From a virus (lineage: Duplodnaviria > Heunggongvirae > Uroviricota > Caudoviricetes): 13,558 nt of DNA. Numbering within the stretch: position 1 is the first letter of the stretch; every line of letters starts with the position of its first letter. The stretch lies in IMG/VR virus record IMGVR_UViG_2529292874_000020; one strand, 5' to 3'. Shown one piece after another: positions 1 to 11,982 of this stretch. The notes beneath the pieces were generated by a model that was not told the origin of the DNA, ran no database searches, and saw only the letters and a list, made by a program, of their open reading frames with translations. The translations under genes were made by a program, and so were the position numbers.

Positions 1-1131
1 TCAAATGACCAGTTTTTTCCATTCCTTACCGCGTGCGTCGTTGTAAATATCGGTCATTTTTTGATTCGAATGGCCTAGCAAAATTTTGGTATCAACCCCC
101 TGCTCTCTGAACAATCGCTCTGATAAAGATCTCTGCTCATGGAAAGAGGGAGGGGTGCCATTAGCACGCCAGTTGTAATCCACAGAATCCCGGGCTTTTT
201 TAAATGCAACGGTTAATGTTGCTGGCTTAACCATCCCGCCGCGCTTAGCTGTCCCTTTCGCGTGATGGTGGTGCAATAGCCACGGACTAAGAACGCAATC
301 GCGGCAGGATGACACCACATCATCCAGGGTGAGATTTAATTTATCGCAACGCAGAGCCAGAGGGATGGCAATCCGGGTTCCTGTTTTTTGCTGTTCGACA
401 TGAAGATAACCATCCCGGATATCCGAAAATTGCATTTTGCAAATATCTGAAAGGCGCTGGCCTGTCATCAGTGCCAGCAGCATACCGCGCTGTAAAAAGT
501 AACCATCCTTTTCCGCTGCGTTATAAATCATCATCCACTCATCAAAAGTCAGTCGCTGTCTTGATATCCGCACCTGCGGTTTTTTTGCCGATTCTGCAGG
601 GTTAAAGCCTGGCGGGACATCGCCCGTTTGCTGAGCTTCCCGGAAAACATCGATCAGTACTTTCCTGAAAATTTGTCCCATTCTGTTATGTCCTCTGGCC
701 TTGTACTCTTCCAGTACTGATACCACATCTTTTACGGTTATGGCATCTAACGGTCTGGTGCCAAAACGTTCATCAAATACCCTGAGAGGGGCCGCTTTCT
801 GTTTCAGCGTGTTGAGTTTGATCTCGCCGTTTTCATATCTTTCCTGTTGAATTTTTCTGTAATTATTCAGAAAAATGGTAACGGTTGATGAACCGCCGGT
901 ATCACTAATAATTTTCTCCTGCAGACTGAGCATTTGTTCCATTTGCTGCCGGGCAAGACGGCTGTTCGCTTCTGCTGCAATAGTTTCTGCCAGTTTCTGG
1001 TCAATACTGCCGAGACCGTGATTTTTGCCTGTTATGGGATGCCTGTAACGCCAGTAAACTTTGTTATTTCTTTTGTCAAAATACGGAGATAATCCCGGAA
1101 CATCGGTTTTATATTTTCGCGGGCGCGCCAT
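1..1131 (-). CDS. int: Phage integrase, lambda-family tyrosine recombinase
   Basis: 376-aa ORF with stop at 1-3 and ATG at 1129-1131. Translation shows the catalytic signature in order (TGQRLSD, FHEQRSLS, LLGHSNQKMTDIY with the nucleophile Tyr). Its 5' end is overlapped by an excisionase-like ORF, the usual int-xis arrangement at a prophage end. Confidence 0.9.
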   Translation of the reverse strand: MARPRKYKTDVPGLSPYFDKRNNKVYWRYRHPITGKNHGLGSIDQKLAETIAAEANSRLARQQMEQMLSLQEKIISDTGGSSTVTIFLNNYRKIQQERYENGEIKLNTLKQKAAPLRVFDERFGTRPLDAITVKDVVSVLEEYKARGHNRMGQIFRKVLIDVFREAQQTGDVPPGFNPAESAKKPQVRISRQRLTFDEWMMIYNAAEKDGYFLQRGMLLALMTGQRLSDICKMQFSDIRDGYLHVEQQKTGTRIAIPLALRCDKLNLTLDDVVSSCRDCVLSPWLLHHHHAKGTAKRGGMVKPATLTVAFKKARDSVDYNWRANGTPPSFHEQRSLSERLFREQGVDTKILLGHSNQKMTDIYNDARGKEWKKLVI

Positions 1132-1549: not shown

Positions 1550-2548
1550 CTATGGCTTTCCCCAGCTCAACGATTGTGCGTACATCGCGATCGTTGTAGT
1601 AACGCCACGGGCAGGGGTCCCCTGCCGTTCGTATGAACGGCGCAAAATCGTGTTGTCGAAGTTGGCTCCATTTCCCCAGACATGAACAAAAAATTCACCG
1701 GAGTTTTCGTCGATAAATTCCCGCAATTGTAACAGTGCATCATCTAACGGGATTTCATCGGTCATAATGGCAGATTGCGCTTCGCGTGATTGCTTAAGCC
1801 ACCATTTCATGGTGTCCCGATCAATGACTCCGCCAGCAGTATCCAGATCGATAGTCTTACTAAATTCCGGTCCCATATCTCCGGTTTGCGGATCGAAAAA
1901 TATTGCACCTATTGAGATGATCGGGGCATCAGGATTTTTTCCCATGGTTTCAAGGTCGATCATTAGATGAATCCCCGCTCTGCTGGTGGATGTGAGATTA
2001 TGATGACCGTTCGCCTTAATTAAGGGATCTGACGCCTCGCCAGTTTCACTATCGCTGGCATGATGCTGATTGCCGCCAGTGTTCTCCTTGTGCTGATGTG
2101 CAGTACCTTCCATTTCCTCCGGATCATTTTCCTGAACTTCAGGCTGATTCTCTCCATCGAATATTTCCTGGTATGTTGCGTCGCCCATCACCGCGCCACA
2201 ATCAGGGCAGTTGCCGCCGCCGGTCTGACCGCAGGCGGTGCAGACTTTTTCCGGTTCCTGTTGCGCTACTGGTTCAGGTTGTTTCGTTTCTGGCTCGTTT
2301 TGTAACGCATTTGGACTGTTTTGTTCCGTTTCTTGCTGGTTCTGGTTCACAGAATCGCGGGTTTCAATCCCCTTCACCCATTTCGGATCATTCGGGTCGC
2401 TAATCCCTTCAACAAATTCACCACGTGATGCAGCAAGCAATTTATCGGCGTCAGGCTGGCTGATATTGGCTGCCTGCATAATTTTGTTTACTTCGTCAGC
2501 GGTAACTTTTACCGGCTCTGGTTGTTCTGAATCTTCAGCGGTATCCAC
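1550..2548 (-). CDS. Exonuclease fragment (RecE-like linker plus DEDDh Exo I/II motifs; C-terminus lost to frameshift) as an ORF caller would report it
   Basis: 332-aa ORF from the supplied track, starting on GTG. Contains MIDLETMG and NGANFDNTIL. The expected H-x4-D motif is absent from this frame but present in the adjacent frame downstream. Confidence 0.6.
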   Translation of the reverse strand: MDTAEDSEQPEPVKVTADEVNKIMQAANISQPDADKLLAASRGEFVEGISDPNDPKWVKGIETRDSVNQNQQETEQNSPNALQNEPETKQPEPVAQQEPEKVCTACGQTGGGNCPDCGAVMGDATYQEIFDGENQPEVQENDPEEMEGTAHQHKENTGGNQHHASDSETGEASDPLIKANGHHNLTSTSRAGIHLMIDLETMGKNPDAPIISIGAIFFDPQTGDMGPEFSKTIDLDTAGGVIDRDTMKWWLKQSREAQSAIMTDEIPLDDALLQLREFIDENSGEFFVHVWGNGANFDNTILRRSYERQGTPARGVTTTIAMYAQSLSWGKP

Positions 2549-3297
2549 ATTTTGCGGTAAGCCCGTGTATGTGCCATTTTTTCGGGCAAAATATTCTTCT
2601 TTTGTGATTTCAGTACCGCCGGCAGCCAGCGCCTTGTCCAGACCAGAAAGTTTGTTTGCCCTGCCGTATTTTTCGCCTCCTTATCGGTGAAGAGGAAGTA
2701 GAACGGCCCCTCACGCTCTACAGATGGTTCGACTTCCACTTTGCATTCGGTTTTTTCGTTGTCCGGAATTGCCGTTTCCACTGCATCAGTTTCTGGTACT
2801 GGCGACGAGAGAGTGTCAGTTGCGCTCTGATTTGTTCCTTCATCTTCAAACACGCCCTTTGTAGTCAGGTATTCAGTAATGTATTTGTTCAGTGCCACAG
2901 GGTCTTTGTGAATATCGATCGGACGTTCGCGAACAAGGCCAAAAATAGTCTGACGGTCATAGCCAAGTGCTTCGGGCTGTTTGCGCATTGATGCTGAGAT
3001 ACGCTTCCAGTCTTCGCGATCCTTGTCGATAACCTCATTTGTCGCCCAGCGATGGATGGTACCGTCAATGTTTCCTGCATCCACATCACCGGGCCAGAGG
3101 GCGCAGGCCAGTTCGTCATCCAGTGTTTTCCATGTCTGCTTATATTCGCGACGAATGACTGCAGTGACAGGGGGGGTTTTTTCAGCAGCGTTTTCAGTGT
3201 TCTGTTGGTTGACTCTGGCGCGGGCGAGATCAACAACAGACGTGTATTTTCCGGTTTCCTTGCGTTCACCTTCGCGACGTTTTTTCCAGATGCGCAT
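2509..3297 (-). CDS. Fragment of the same disrupted RecE-like gene (middle segment)
   Basis: 262-aa ORF, protein-like over its first ~200 aa. Its last ~55 aa (Trp/Arg-rich) look out of frame, while the exonuclease frame is open and protein-like from 2680 downward. The other frame over 2889-3297 is compositionally junk. Confidence 0.5.
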   Translation of the reverse strand: MRIWKKRREGERKETGKYTSVVDLARARVNQQNTENAAEKTPPVTAVIRREYKQTWKTLDDELACALWPGDVDAGNIDGTIHRWATNEVIDKDREDWKRISASMRKQPEALGYDRQTIFGLVRERPIDIHKDPVALNKYITEYLTTKGVFEDEGTNQSATDTLSSPVPETDAVETAIPDNEKTECKVEVEPSVEREGPFYFLFTDKEAKNTAGQTNFLVWTRRWLPAVLKSQKKNILPEKMAHTRAYRKMWIPLKIQNNQSR

Positions 3298-3548
3298 TTC
3301 TGCCTGAATTTCAGGCCATTTGCACCAGGCTTACATTTATGCTTAACCCACCCGATGGCATGCAGCTTAAGCTCCGGATACATGGCGTTAACTTCTGGCA
3401 TTTTCATCAACGCTTCAACGATATGTCCGTCGAATGTTGCCATGTCTTCCTGCAACAATTCCTGTGCGCTAATCACCATATCAACGGTGATGTTTTCACA
3501 TGTGTCGAACTTAACCATGACAGCGTTCTGTACTTCAGGGGCAGCTTG

Positions 3549-3961: not shown

Positions 3962-4162
3962 TTAAAGACCTGCCGGGATTTCGTTATTATCCTGGTGAAT
4001 AACTTTATCGACCGGGTAACAGTTACCGGGAATTTTCTGTTCGGTTGCTGCAGTCACACACTCCTGCATTGTCCTGTGAACACTGACTGCAATATCAACT
4101 GGCTCTCCGGAAACAAGAAAAACTGTCAGAACAAGTGCAAATGCTGTATTCATTGCCAGCAT
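3962..4162 (-). CDS. Small protein with N-terminal hydrophobic segment, YdfD-like (position and size)
   Basis: Track ORF 3962-4207; the likely start is the internal ATG at 4160-4162 (MLAMNTAFALVLTVFLVSGEP...), preceded by AAGGA. It overlaps the end of the dicB-like gene by 13 nt and is 66 aa, as expected for the gene following dicB in Qin. Confidence 0.5.
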   Translation of the reverse strand: MLAMNTAFALVLTVFLVSGEPVDIAVSVHRTMQECVTAATEQKIPGNCYPVDKVIHQDNNEIPAGL

Positions 4163-4338
4163 CCTTTTTGTATCGGACGTAAACGGGCCAACATTGAAAG
4201 AATGCATATTTTATTTAATAGCTCCCGTTCGTGTTTTCTCTTGTTAATGGCATCTTCAGTAAATACAGGGTTACTGATAGTGACACCAATTTCAAAACAA
4301 CCTTCAGACGTATTAACGTTTGGTAATAACGTTTCCAT
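4150..4338 (-). CDS. dicB: Cell-division inhibitor DicB
   Basis: 62-aa ORF from the ATG at 4336-4338, preceded by GAGGA 7 nt upstream. METLLPNVNTSEGCFEIGVTISNPVFTEDAINKRKHERELLNKICILSMLARLRPIQKGCWQ matches my recollection of DicB in length and sequence. The supplied 97-aa ORF extends it upstream in frame without support. Sits immediately downstream of the DicF-like sequence, as in Qin. Confidence 0.8.
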   Translation of the reverse strand: METLLPNVNTSEGCFEIGVTISNPVFTEDAINKRKHERELLNKICILSMLARLRPIQKGCWQ

Positions 4339-4508: not shown

Positions 4509-4566
4509 AAAAAGGGCGGCAGAGCAGTCACGGAGTAAAACTGATACCGCCAAACGTCACCAGAAA
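4509..4566 (-). ncRNA. dicF: DicF small RNA (ftsZ-targeting sRNA of the dicB operon)
   Basis: The reverse complement of 4509-4566 reads TTTCTGGTGACGTTTGGCGGTATCAGTTTTACTCCGTGACTGCTCTGCCGCCCTTTTT, which matches the DicF sequence as I recall it, including the GC-rich 3' stem and U-run. Orientation and position (between the ydfC-like gene and dicB) fit. Confidence 0.7.
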
Positions 4567-4898
4567 ATTGATAACAGAGGGCGTTGCAGCGGGGTTGTCA
4601 CTTAAGCGTATGGTCAACCTGACAACCCGGTGTCCTCAACGGGGGAAGGAATAACCCCGCCATACTTACCGCCGCGCCATTTCGCGGATTGCCACAACCG
4701 GAAGCGCACGGTCGACGAAAATTTAACGACAGGCTATCTATGAACCAGCTACCTCGCCGTGCGCTTTCGCGTTATGTCTGACTTTTCAGGGAAATATCCT
4801 TTCAGTAAACTGTCAGTGCCGGATGCTCACCCGTGTCCGGCGCACGCACTCCACCTCACCCGTGGAGAACTCCTTAATTACCAACCTCAGGAGGGTGA

Positions 4899-5132
4899 AT
4901 GTTAAAATCAACTCTTATTGCTAAATGCCTTTATCAAAATCGCATGGTAAGCAGCATTTCAATAGGCGAGTCTGCAGTTAAAAGTATTTTCGAAGAGTAC
5001 TTTCCCGGGCATGATTTTAATAAATGGAATACCAAATTACCGCCAGCAGTTTCAACGCGTATTCTGAAAGCAACCGAAAGAGCAAGTACAATTCGCGTTA
5101 ACTATTTCATTAAAGATTTGTGGGATCTTTGA
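4899..5132 (+). CDS. Hypothetical 77-aa protein (AT-rich cassette gene A)
   Basis: ATG at 4899 preceded by AGGAGGG with a 5-6 nt spacer. Visibly AT-rich coding sequence. Converges on the next gene and overlaps it by 23 bp. Confidence 0.5.
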   Translation: MLKSTLIAKCLYQNRMVSSISIGESAVKSIFEEYFPGHDFNKWNTKLPPAVSTRILKATERASTIRVNYFIKDLWDL

Positions 5133-5517
5133 TATCCACAGAGCCTAAAGTATGTGCATATGGATGTGCTATTATGCGCCCTCGCAGATTTGCATCATTT
5201 TCTAAATTCACTGAACGAAACAGGGCATCAACAAGGCTCTGTACAATGCAAAGGCAATCGAAGACTGTCGCCGTTTCTGTTTTGATTGATGAAAGAACAT
5301 GGCCATTCACGCAAACAGAAATTACCCGTTTATTAACATCGCTTTCCTGCTTTTGATTATCAGAACCATATAGCCCAGAAAAAGCATTGCGCACATTACG
5401 AACCATATTATCGATGGTTTCTTTTTCTGCGGTACTAAGGTCAAGAGTAGCCAGTTGTGAACGAACTATATTCGATGCCATTTCCTGTAATGGCGTTGGT
5501 AAATCTTTAAATTCCAT
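5110..5517 (-). CDS. Hypothetical 135-aa protein (AT-rich cassette gene B)
   Basis: ORF on the early-left strand, 22 nt downstream of the ydfC-like gene. No recognisable motif and a weak RBS. AT-rich relative to neighbours. Confidence 0.5.
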   Translation of the reverse strand: MEFKDLPTPLQEMASNIVRSQLATLDLSTAEKETIDNMVRNVRNAFSGLYGSDNQKQESDVNKRVISVCVNGHVLSSIKTETATVFDCLCIVQSLVDALFRSVNLENDANLRGRIIAHPYAHTLGSVDIKDPTNL

Positions 5518-5539
5518 TATTAGCTTCGTTGGTTAGCTA

Positions 5540-5758
5540 TTAACGCGGGTATGTAATCATTCTGGCAATGCTTAATGCCGCTGCTTTTTCCAGATTGGTG
5601 ATATCCTGCTCCAGAGCGGACAGATTTTCAGCCTGCTTAGCCCTGGCTTCATTGGCCCATTTCAGATCCTGCGCTGCATTAATTTTCTGGTGCATCCACT
5701 CATAAAGTTCATCATCGGTATAGTCTGGCGCGATGATGACGGGGTCTCGTTTCTGCAT
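5540..5758 (-). CDS. Hypothetical 72-aa protein, YdfC-like by size and position
   Basis: ATG at 5756-5758 preceded by AAGGAG with a 6-nt spacer. 72 aa, the same length as YdfC, which precedes dicF in the K-12 dicB operon. Sequence identity to YdfC was not verified. Confidence 0.55.
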   Translation of the reverse strand: MQKRDPVIIAPDYTDDELYEWMHQKINAAQDLKWANEARAKQAENLSALEQDITNLEKAAALSIARMITYPR

Positions 5759-5851
5759 GTCGGCTCCTTGTGGTTAGCGTTGCCTGCTTTTTAACCACGT
5801 CAGGCGAGGTGGTATCCTCTGAGGGGGCTGTTACTCGAGAGGAAATTGGTT

Positions 5852-6052
5852 ATGAATACAATCAAGTTTTCTTGCCCAGAATGTGGTGGCGAAGTCTTTG
5901 ACACATCCTTTAAGCCGCAGGGCTCTGACAGTTTCGCGGGAGCCATCTGCAAAAATTGTGGTCACCTTGTAACTGAAGATGAGTCCTCGCAGTTCGATGA
6001 CGAAATCGTTGACAATATCTTCGGTGCACTCACCAGAGACTTTCTGAAGTAA
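5852..6052 (+). CDS. Small zinc-ribbon protein (CPxCG ... CxNCG)
   Basis: 66-aa ORF from the ATG at 5852 (track start at 5846 is TTG), with GAGAGGA upstream. Two Cys pairs, CPECGG and CKNCGH, 17 residues apart. Codon usage looks E. coli-like, unlike the overlapping antisense ORF. Confidence 0.5.
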   Translation: MNTIKFSCPECGGEVFDTSFKPQGSDSFAGAICKNCGHLVTEDESSQFDDEIVDNIFGALTRDFLK

Positions 6053-6394: not shown

Positions 6395-6802
6395 TTATTT
6401 ATTTGCGCTTCTTTTGCGAGCTTTGAGTAGTTCTTCAAAAAGTTTGTTGAAATTCTCAACTCGAGCACGCATCTCTGACAACAGAGCCTTTTGCTCTGAC
6501 TCAGGCAGTGCGTCGAACAGTTGAAGCAACTCTTTTTGATCTTCTGTCAGATTGACTGGCTGATTATCTGGGATCGGTTCGCCTGGTTGCTTATCTTCAT
6601 CTCCAAAAAGAAGCCAAGTCGGCGAGCACTGAAGCGCCTGGCTCAGTGCGAATAATCTCTTCCCCGCTGGCTGTGTTTCATCTCTTTCCCATTGAGAAAT
6701 TGTTACGTGAGCCACTTTGACCAGCTTACCTAATGCGGCCTGAGACAGTTTTAATTTTTTTCGCCTGTATAAGAGGCGAGCACCGAAGGTTTCGTTTTTC
6801 AT
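6395..6802 (-). CDS. dicA: DicA-like HTH (XRE-family) prophage repressor
   Basis: 135-aa ORF with an N-terminal helix-turn-helix (LSQAALGKLVKVAHVTISQWERDET) and the DicA-like C-terminus SPTWLLFGDEDKQP...MRARVENFNKLFEELLKARKR. Same length as DicA and divergent from a DicC/Cro-like gene. Confidence 0.85.
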   Translation of the reverse strand: MKNETFGARLLYRRKKLKLSQAALGKLVKVAHVTISQWERDETQPAGKRLFALSQALQCSPTWLLFGDEDKQPGEPIPDNQPVNLTEDQKELLQLFDALPESEQKALLSEMRARVENFNKLFEELLKARKRSANK

Positions 6803-10470: not shown

Positions 10471-10540
10471 GATGGACTTGATTATACTCATTGCATTGTC
10501 AGAAATAGTTATCCATTAAAGGCTGGCTATTCCAAACAGG

Positions 10541-10568
10541 ATGTTGATTACAAAAATGTAATCAACAT
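10541..10568. promoter_or_regulatory. 28-bp near-perfect palindrome (12-bp arms, AAAA spacer) in the AT-rich leader of the ModA-like gene; candidate operator
   Basis: ATGTTGATTACA-AAAA-TGTAATCAACAT, about 165 bp upstream of the ATG at 10733, followed by a TATAAT hexamer at 10595-10600. Confidence 0.35.
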
Positions 10569-10732
10569 GTAAGGTTTATACTCTTCAATATGCGTATAAT
10601 TTTCCTTATTTTGTTGACTTTAAATAACAAGCTATGCACGAGGTAAAGTCGGATAAGTTTATCTGGATGTAATATATATTATTTGTAGTGTTTATAACTT
10701 TATTTCATGATAACCAATAAAAGGAGTTTTTT

Positions 10733-11491
10733 ATGAGGAACATAATGGCAGGTTTTTTAATATTCCTGTCTTCTGCTGCTTATGCTGATATCAATCTGTA
10801 TGGTCCTGGTGGCCCGCATACAGCCTTGCTTGATGCAGCCAAACTTTATGCCGAAAAAACAGGTATTATAGTGAACGTTCATTACGGCCCACAGAACAAA
10901 TGGAATGAAGATGCCAAAAAAAATGCAGATATCTTGTTTGGCGCATCAGAACAATCTGCTCTGGCTATCATTCGGGACCATAAAGACAGCTTCAGTGAAA
11001 AAGATATTCAGCCTCTTTATCTGCGAAAAAGTATTTTACTGGTAAAGAAAGGTAATCCTAAAAATATCCGGAGTATTGACGACCTGACCAGACCTGGGAT
11101 TGGCGTAATTGTTAATGATGGTGGTGGTACCAGTAATACATCAGGCACTGGCGTCTGGGAAGATATTGCCGGACGTAAAGGGAATATAGAAACTGTCGCC
11201 GCAATCCGAAAAAATATTATTTTATATGCGCCCAATAGCGGAACTGCACGTAAGGCTCTTGAGAATCAGCCTGGAGCAGATGTCTGGATAACCTGGGCTG
11301 ACTGGGCAGCCAGTAATCCAGAAATTGGTGATGTCGTGGAAATAGCGCCAGACTACGTGATATGGCGTGATATGAACATTACAGTACGTCAGGATGCAAA
11401 TGATGAAACCCGTCGATTTGCAGAATGGCTACAAACCGATGAAGCGGCGCCTGCATTCAAAAAATATGGCTGGACCAGGAAAGGCACTTGA
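10733..11491 (+). CDS. Orphan periplasmic substrate-binding protein, ModA/TupA-like (PBP type II fold), with signal peptide
   Basis: 252-aa ORF with AAGGAG RBS. N-terminal signal peptide MRNIMAGFLIFLSSAAYA. The mature protein matches the ModA-type oxyanion-binding layout by eye (ADILFGASEQ vs ModA PADLFISADQ; C-terminal FKKYGW vs ModA FKRYGF). No permease or ATPase genes are adjacent. The leader is AT-rich. Confidence 0.75.
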   Translation: MRNIMAGFLIFLSSAAYADINLYGPGGPHTALLDAAKLYAEKTGIIVNVHYGPQNKWNEDAKKNADILFGASEQSALAIIRDHKDSFSEKDIQPLYLRKSILLVKKGNPKNIRSIDDLTRPGIGVIVNDGGGTSNTSGTGVWEDIAGRKGNIETVAAIRKNIILYAPNSGTARKALENQPGADVWITWADWAASNPEIGDVVEIAPDYVIWRDMNITVRQDANDETRRFAEWLQTDEAAPAFKKYGWTRKGT

Positions 11492-11634: not shown

Positions 11635-11826
11635 GCGAAAACGGTTTGCTGTAACGGCAGAGTTAAGTAGGATTGCTGCGGGTGCTTGAGGCTATCTGCC
11701 TCGGGCATGAACACCAACGGCAGATAGATAAAAGCCCCACCCGACTATAAATCGAAGTGAGGCCCCTATATGCTCGTCACATATAGATTGCCTCTTACGG
11801 ACCGAAAGGTCAAGGAGAAGCAGGCT

Positions 11827-11982
11827 ATGAAGCAGCAAAAGGCGATGTTAATCGCCCTGATCGTCATCTGTTTAATCGTCATAGTGACGGCACTGGTAAC
11901 GAGGAAAGACCTCTGCGAGGTACGAATCCGAACCGGCCAGACGGAGGTCGCTGTCTTCACAGCTTACGAACCTGAGGAGTAA
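11827..11982 (+). CDS. hokD: Hok-family type I toxin, HokD/RelF-like
   Basis: 51-aa ORF MKQQKAMLIALIVICLIVIVTALVTRKDLCEVRIRTGQTEVAVFTAYEPEE with a single transmembrane segment and the conserved Hok C-terminus. AAGGAG RBS 8 nt upstream. The track ORF 11770-11982 is the same frame with a 19-codon upstream extension. Confidence 0.85.
   Translation: MKQQKAMLIALIVICLIVIVTALVTRKDLCEVRIRTGQTEVAVFTAYEPEE

Follow-up and report, generated by a model that had tools for sequence, protein, structure and literature searches.

A pair of small convergent genes, which we call A (77 aa) and B (135 aa), forms a conserved two-gene module of lambdoid prophages, with B in the early-left (PL/dicB) operon and A on the opposite strand; this conclusion is well supported. 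So is a second one, that the E. coli pair represents one of the alleles occupying a hypervariable slot enclosed by ydfC and the dicF leader, with the core of B fused to an N-terminal module belonging to the slot. The window (the whole stretch of DNA analysed, 13,558 nucleotides) is a Qin/CP-933-type lambdoid prophage from an O157-like E. coli. A prophage of O157 strain 9000 (locus L001) matches it at 98% identity in this region, and there RefSeq gives both ORFs as 'hypothetical protein' (WP_000920491.1 and WP_000394552.1). The window contains the following features.

1-1131, minus strand: integrase; the excisionase gene is also on the minus strand
Between the excisionase gene and dicB, minus strand: fragmented exonuclease region and a ydfD-like gene
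4150-4338, minus strand: dicB (62 aa, translation METLLPNVNTSEG...), annotated as dicB in the near-identical O157 locus
4514-4565, minus strand: DicF sRNA (Rfam RF00039, 76.7 bits)
4566-4886, no strand assigned: G+C-rich dicF leader/spacer (~320-330 nt), the upstream region of A on the plus strand
4887-5520, no strand assigned: variable-slot segment of 634 bp, present here and absent from K-12 Qin
4889-4895, plus strand: Shine-Dalgarno sequence AGGAGGG of gene A, 3-4 nt before the ATG
4899-5132, plus strand: gene A (77 aa, ATG start, phrog_10348), antisense to the dicB operon
5110-5517, minus strand: gene B (135 aa, ATG start), among the listed ORFs
5110-5132, both strands: 3' overlap of A and B (23 bp), with the perfect inverted repeat AAAGAT-N7-ATCTTT at 5112-5130
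5110-5343, minus strand: B core domain (residues 59-135, phrog_23433), homologous to stand-alone proteins of 75-90 aa
5344-5517, minus strand: B N-terminal module (residues 1-58, MEFKDLP...), common to the slot alleles
5540-5758, minus strand: ydfC (72 aa), directly upstream of B in the operon
5831-6130/6187, minus strand: ORF of 99/118 aa, of which the 99-aa version is the RefSeq-annotated ORF (phrog_21318)
6395-6802, minus strand: DicA-like HTH repressor, with dicBp/PL downstream of it
Beyond the repressor, plus strand: cro/ydaS, ydaT and replication genes

B follows ydfC after 22 nt on the operon strand and lies upstream of the dicF leader, DicF and dicB, so that an uninterrupted series of genes on one strand runs from the DicA-controlled promoter to dicF-dicB and includes B. 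Because dicBp/PL lies downstream of the DicA-like repressor, B is expected to be repressed in the prophage state, as far as the regulation of the dicB operon known from K-12 (PMC10448788) applies here. The dicF leader contains hairpins at 4818-4841 and 4849-4867. In the window, Rfam detected DicF and sok and nothing else, and in 14 related loci it detected no new family.

Other parts of the window have features of their own. The exonuclease (RecE/YdfE-like) region at 1550-3518 on the minus strand is divided into three overlapping ORFs of 332, 262 and 209 aa, and the same region of L001 is a single 823-aa gene; given the 19 gap openings in the alignment of the window with L001, the copy in the window may be frameshifted. 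A zinc-ribbon-like 68-aa ORF with two CxxC pairs (5846-6052, plus strand) lies wholly antisense inside the minus-strand ORF at 5831-6130/6187. It gave sub-threshold matches to Pfam zinc ribbons and a match to phrog_4852 (5.5e-10), and tblastn returned near-identical copies only; if coding, it would add a further antisense gene to the early-left operon. A type I toxin-antitoxin (TA) locus of the hok/sok type is located at 11680-11982 (Rfam sok, 103.9 bits), where a 70-aa mok/hok-like ORF (11770-11982) overlaps sok. The 252-aa ORF at 10733-11491 occupies the same position as the 'AcfC family adhesin Paa' of the strain 9000 prophage and comes after a very AT-rich stretch (29% G+C around 10500-10800).

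The first-pass annotation of this DNA had described a convergent 77-aa gene on the plus strand and 135-aa gene on the minus strand, overlapping by 23 bp and more AT-rich than their surroundings. The ORF list confirms the arrangement, and the base composition agrees: the segment 4887-5520 has a G+C content of 39.0% (A, 36.3%; B, 39.7%), against 48.2% for the window, 47.9% for ydfC and 54.2% for the dicF-leader spacer, and equally AT-rich stretches of 634 bp amount to 3.7%. Its statement that K-12 Qin has only spacer at this site also proved right. In a MAFFT alignment with NC_000913.3, the difference is a clean indel, in which ~12 unrelated bases stand in place of 4887-5520 and the flanks (the 3' end of ydfC and the 320-nt dicF leader) are ~98% identical. 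This 634-bp indel is compatible with a loss in K-12 or a gain by this prophage.

Among 5000 dinucleotide shuffles of the 634 bp, an ORF of 77 codons on one strand arose in 13%, one of 135 codons in 0.14% and both in 0.02%. The longer ORF and the two together are thus beyond chance, whereas length alone does not prove A; the proof comes from homology and selection. Homologues of A with 55-72% identity and a length of 75-78 aa were found in at least 8 genera (Klebsiella, Raoultella, Serratia, Dickeya, Xenorhabdus, Yersinia, Morganella and Salmonella), and a profile search of 1.84 billion representatives returned 163 matches at E<=1e-3, nearly all of them stand-alone proteins of 74-79 aa. At intermediate divergence, dN/dS was 0.06-0.26 for A and 0.17-0.41 for the B core. 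These comparisons indicate that A and B are both real genes under purifying selection.

The pair extends well beyond Qin. A and the B core are convergent in every enterobacterial locus examined, comprising those of Serratia (L007-L010), Klebsiella (L011-L013), Leclercia (L018), Citrobacter (L014-L017), Proteus (L025) and Photorhabdus (L027, Photorhabdus/Xenorhabdus-like), 15 diverse IMG/VR contigs and further metagenome contigs. In the Photorhabdus locus, A is frameshifted and B is intact. The pairing persists where A has diverged to ~35-40% identity (Citrobacter, L029 and L114), and the overlap is 23 bp in 18 of the 22 unique pairs, 26 bp in two and 51 bp in two. Its fixed length follows from the C-terminal motif FIKDLWxL of A: the stop codon of B, TAA, is the complement of TTA within the conserved Ile-Lys codons (ATT-AAA). 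The last residues of B are poorly conserved. In Serratia, a palindrome (AAAGATCTTT) lets both proteins read Lys-Asp-Leu from the same bases.

Exceptions to the pairing exist on both sides. A occurs alone in four distant loci (L028 from Psychrosphaera and L115-L117), and a rare E. coli allele of 201 aa has a B core but no A; it is present in 8 of 5426 genomes, as compared with 659 that carry the pair. Scans of viral contigs with single distant A proteins as queries gave no matches. On this sequence evidence, the pair is not specific to Qin and is more general than the first-pass annotation assumed; that two adjacent genes are co-inherited is no proof that their proteins interact.

The two proteins were modelled as monomers with AF2. 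A is basic (pI 9.5) and is predicted to be a compact five-helix bundle with a pLDDT of 96.7. B is acidic, evolves faster than A, and is predicted to consist of a helical hairpin (residues 8-47), a disordered linker (49-61), a beta-hairpin, two helices and an extended tail, with a pLDDT of ~80 in the domains. Together with GRAVY values of -0.13 (A) and -0.17 (B), the models point to soluble proteins, a globular helical bundle in one case and a beta/alpha domain in the other. A matches phrog_10348 over 77 of 77 positions (1.1e-47), B matches phrog_1363 (4.8e-47) and the B core matches phrog_23433 (1.7e-8), and all three families are without an assigned function.

The C-terminal ~75 aa of B (residues ~59-135) share 34-38% identity with stand-alone proteins of 75-90 aa from other genera and, with them, the motif V-x-VNG...AVAADY...LE-x-EAN-x-SGKT-x-H. 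Only this part of B is associated with A. The N-terminal MEFKDLP... module also heads proteins of 124, 133, 201, 208 and 212 aa with unrelated C-termini. Judging from these alignments, B is a chimera of the slot's N-terminal module (1-58) and a core (~59-135) that belongs with A. The N-terminal parts of B proteins are interchangeable, and may be lacking altogether or be a ClpX-type zinc finger, a YdfC-like domain or the MEFKDLP module; they may be oligomerisation or adaptor modules. The zinc finger (C4, PF06689) stands at the N-terminus of B proteins from Citrobacter and elsewhere, and fusions of it to B were observed at L104:2712-3185 (minus strand) and L014:3501-3920 and in P0182/P0205-P0210. 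In one viral contig, a YdfC-like domain with 35% identity to the YdfC of the window over 62 residues (E 2e-9) is fused to the B core (L111:2712-3293, minus strand). This fusion links YdfC, a protein without an assigned function, to the A/B module, and a ydfC-like gene precedes B in Proteus as well as in the window. Phage Evi (LR597642.1), an inducible prophage, has the gene order ydfC-B-A.

Neither protein carries a motif that had been recognised at first reading, and searches of Pfam, NCBIfam, PADLOC and PDB sequence profiles likewise came back empty. By sequence and structure searches, A and B have no homology or fold similarity to defence, exclusion, toxin or antitoxin proteins; PADLOC-DB v2 gave 0 families for either at E<=1, and no recognised type II TA superfamily was matched (RelE/ParE, MazF, VapC, HipA, Phd, RHH, AbrB and others). 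A Walker A reading of the EANASGKT segment of B proteins was discarded, as its spacing does not fit [AG]x4GK[ST] and B in the window has NDANLRGR. A literature search with the RefSeq protein accessions and PHROG identifiers found no paper that mentions them, and in papers on the dicBF operon the extra genes specific to O157 are labelled 'not conserved', without study.

In E. coli, the pair is present in 659 of 5426 complete genomes, mostly O157:H7, O145 and O111. The presence/absence comparison of Qin-like prophages that the first-pass annotation had proposed reveals a polymorphic site, and other Qin-like prophages carry different pairs there. The slot is bounded by ydfC (or ydfA) and by the dicF leader, which is conserved in K-12 and in all Qin-like alleles and absent from other genera. 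Each allele consists of a sense gene, with the common N-terminal module and a variable C-terminus, facing an antisense ORF; in the other alleles the antisense ORFs belong to different PHROG families (phrog_2605, 18692, 4274 and 7249). Alleles of this hypervariable slot were observed at L003:4001-4775, L020:2501-3056, L021:2501-3337 and L023:2501-3281. DicF is present in L020 and L023, and was not detected at the Rfam gathering score in L003 and L021, in which the leader is mostly conserved (the match starts 17 nt into the leader of the window).

The same junction, CCTCAGGAGGGTGAA with AGGAGGG, directly precedes A as well as an ORF of 63 aa in the 201-aa allele and the longer one in L020, so the slot supplies a ready-made translation start for whichever antisense gene is inserted. 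The strong ribosome-binding site attributed earlier to the cassette is therefore real (4889-4895), but it is part of the conserved spacer side and not of the cassette. In most alleles, the A/B-core unit is free of recombination break-points. The proposal that two AT-rich genes had been acquired separately from their surroundings is too simple: B is a resident N-terminal module fused to an imported core, and A in E. coli has lost the promoter-like motif of its homologues. Another variable site of this operon lies between the repressor and ydfA, where some Qin-like prophages carry a PaaA2/ParE TA pair (L004:2694-3172 and L006:2685-3156).

The site had been described as adjoining the immunity region, and this relation is even stronger in other prophages. 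In those with an S24-type cI, the interval between cI and the B homologue contains a terminator and a promoter whose operators repeat those between cI and cro, which makes B the first gene of the early-left operon, directly after the cI terminator and PL/OL. A ~70-nt leader on the minus strand (CAACAGCGAACAGGCAGGACGCCCACGAAGTAGCCGCC...GATGATTCG) was observed between PL/OL and the start of B (L018:3440-3500, L015/L017:3405-3500, and around 5450-5560 in L009 and L007). It is conserved across different immunity specificities and without a match in Rfam, and may be a leader element of the nut/put-like or another type.

Outside E. coli, 18 of 22 unique sequences upstream of A contain TGnTAnnnT at 30-34 nt from the ATG. 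This is an extended -10 element that keeps the critical T1, A2 and T6; TTCACC-like hexamers stand before it, and it sits in an inverted repeat (CACCAC...GGTGG) that is invariant with immunity type. By its match to the consensus, it would fit a separately transcribed A firing towards PL. E. coli A has no TGnTAnnnT upstream, and no consensus sigma-70 promoter was found in the dicF-leader spacer, so A may be poorly expressed in the E. coli allele or driven differently. A weak 8/12 promoter (TTTTCA at 4783-4788 with TAAACT at 4806-4811) fell below the scan threshold and is not claimed. A word-7 blastn found no homology between the E. coli spacer and the regions upstream of A in other genera, and a hairpin resemblance between them in a MAFFT alignment was not reliable. 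No intrinsic terminator was found between A and B or for either direction; the weak 5-bp stem at 5563-5580, far downstream, was not accepted as one.

From this arrangement, we infer that A and B are expressed in opposite states, A being an autonomous effector and B its faster-evolving cognate neutraliser, and we tentatively favour, as a possibility, the following scheme. A would be made in the prophage state, while PL/dicBp is repressed, in other genera from its own extended -10 promoter, and would act as a conserved effector, probably with an accessory exclusion or abortive-infection-type function. On induction, B would be the earliest lytic product and would bind and neutralise A through its core and extended tail, and read-through from PL across A in the antisense direction would shut A off by convergent transcription or duplex RNA. 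The prophage would thereby escape its own factor, a form of self-immunity as with BstA-aba or P22 SieB/Esc. The polarity of effector and neutraliser is read from relative conservation and solo occurrences only: A alone in several distant loci suggests that it can function without B, and a faster-evolving acidic protein with an extended tail and swappable N-termini has the profile typical of neutralisers.

The opposite polarity seems unlikely to us. In a TA-like guard of this kind, B would be an early effector of host takeover or growth inhibition, and A, made in the lysogen, would neutralise leaky B by binding, by antisense transcription or by both. B does lie among small host-directed early genes (dicB, ydfD and, in phage Evi, kil), the convergent overlap is conserved, and A and B co-occur in all enterobacterial loci examined; a broken A beside an intact B, as in the Photorhabdus locus, would be tolerable if cI represses B. 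A dedicated antidote found solo in several distant loci would be odd, however, and A evolves more slowly than B, the reverse of the usual relation of antitoxin to toxin. Nor is B similar to any toxin, and the two genes are not an operon.

We give a similarly low probability to the view that A and B are unrelated accessory genes that travel together through gapless packing, their overlap being a by-product of the B frame entering the conserved 3' end of A. The stop of B merely complementing TTA in ATT-AAA, the poor conservation of the last residues of B and the occurrence of each gene without the other are as expected under this view. It does not readily account for a pairing that persists down to ~35% identity of A while flanking genes, immunity types and the N-terminal parts fused to B vary, nor for break-points mostly outside the A/B-core unit, and the other E. 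coli slot alleles are sense/antisense pairs too.

It is quite improbable that the pair is a module regulating the lysis-lysogeny decision, in which a promoter for A would send transcription across B towards PL and early-left expression would be tuned by transcriptional interference or duplex RNA, A, B or both being small regulators and not effectors. K-12 Qin, the other slot alleles and many lambdoid prophages lack the pair, which is thus dispensable for the switch, and strong purifying selection on both proteins means that the proteins matter and not transcription alone. In favour of such a module are the position of B as the first PL gene in S24-cI prophages, the conserved promoter-like motif with its inverted repeat upstream of A irrespective of immunity type, the absence of a terminator between the genes, and the precedent of lambda OOP/cII for convergent antisense control (PMC12197685). 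Chance ORFs in AT-rich DNA, one or both of them non-genic, can be dismissed, since the 77-codon ORF seen in 13% of segment shuffles is outweighed by both ORFs together in 0.02%, a very confident AF2 model of A, a strong ribosome-binding site common to different alleles and, as the conservation data that already refuted this reading, length-conserved homologues across genera with dN/dS well below 1.

The favoured scheme, with A active in the prophage and B as its early-lytic neutraliser, resembles several known systems in logic, and on the features open to testing the pair does not qualify as a TA system of type I or II, as Rex/SieB or as a known defence system. The closest concept is BstA-aba of Salmonella phage BTP1 and relatives, in which a prophage factor beside cI has cognate self-immunity (bioRxiv 10.1101/2020.07.13.199331). 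Both are accessory loci directly beside the prophage repressor. In BstA-aba, and as we propose for A/B, an effector goes with a cognate element that spares the induced prophage, and cognate pairs diversify. BstA is expressed in lysogeny, as we propose from sequence for A. Unlike A/B, BstA-aba combines a single large protein with a DNA element of 63 bp that lies within its own locus; A and B are two small proteins on opposite strands, and there is no similarity in sequence or fold.

The first-pass annotation likened the position to that of lambda rexAB/sieB. Pfam, PHROGs (families of unknown function only), PADLOC and structure searches gave no Rex or SieB homology, and no PHROG or Pfam link joins A or B to SieB. 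The placement itself is comparable. The pair lies beside the immunity region, and an extended -10 precedes A in 18 of 22 regions outside E. coli, although not in the window. In P22 and lambda, SieB is encoded by an exclusion gene of the prophage state in the early-left region, a likeness we propose for A, and an escape product protects the phage's own lytic growth, with antisense transcription in the switch, a likeness we propose for B. SieB, however, is a membrane protein of ~190 aa and Esc an in-frame product of the same gene, whereas A and B are soluble, unrelated and separately encoded. SieB/Esc/sas and OOP are precedents for antisense control (PMC12197685). Seen as a possible moron, the pair differs in composition from its neighbours; neither a promoter for A nor a terminator in either direction was found in the window, and the promoter-like motif occurs with the homologues of other genera.

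A second early suggestion, a toxin-antitoxin module, found no support in gene order or homology: the genes are convergent and match no toxin or antitoxin family. An exclusion, abortive-infection or TA function would nevertheless fit the anatomy. Convergent genes cannot share a transcript, so A and B do not form a type II TA operon. The likeness to type II systems is that two small proteins are inherited together, of which one is compact, basic and better conserved and the other is acidic, evolves faster, is partly disordered and has variable accessory domains; unlike them, A and B are not co-transcribed, have no family similarity and can each occur alone. Some type I loci of prophages, such as txpA/ratA and bsrG/SR4, have convergent transcripts that overlap at their 3' ends. 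A and B are likewise convergent prophage genes, and their transcripts would overlap at the 3' ends, to judge from ORFs that overlap by 23 bp with no terminator between them. In those loci, a non-coding RNA serves as antitoxin to a small hydrophobic toxin peptide; in A/B, both strands encode conserved soluble proteins under selection, and by GRAVY and the AF2 models neither is a small hydrophobic membrane toxin. Like polymorphic effector/immunity cassettes, the slot alleles have a constant N-terminal module (MEFKDLP...) and alternative C-termini, each with a different small neighbour. In contrast to such cassettes, they have this neighbour on the other strand and lack any secretion or toxin domain, and the B core occurs outside E. 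coli without the MEFKDLP module.

That A/B represents a new family of prophage exclusion or abortive-infection modules, with protein-based cognate self-immunity, an effector of new fold and convergent opposite-state wiring, and that the ydfC-dicF slot is a hotspot swapping such pairs, is a broader claim that we consider rather doubtful. If the favoured scheme is right, the pair would be a compact and widespread way for a prophage to carry a lysogen-active factor yet escape it on induction, with effector and antidote tied to lysogenic and lytic transcription by gene orientation alone. Of the complete E. coli genomes, 12% have the pair, chiefly those of Shiga-toxin-producing lineages, and many other Enterobacterales carry it too. 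Qin-like prophages would then have, between ydfC and dicF, an exchange site for such pairs, and a new small protein fold would join the repertoire of defence and counter-defence. As A lies antisense within the DicF/DicB operon, its transcription could modulate these cell-division regulators in EHEC. Whatever its function, the pair is a short and tractable 'known unknown' adjoining the immunity region.
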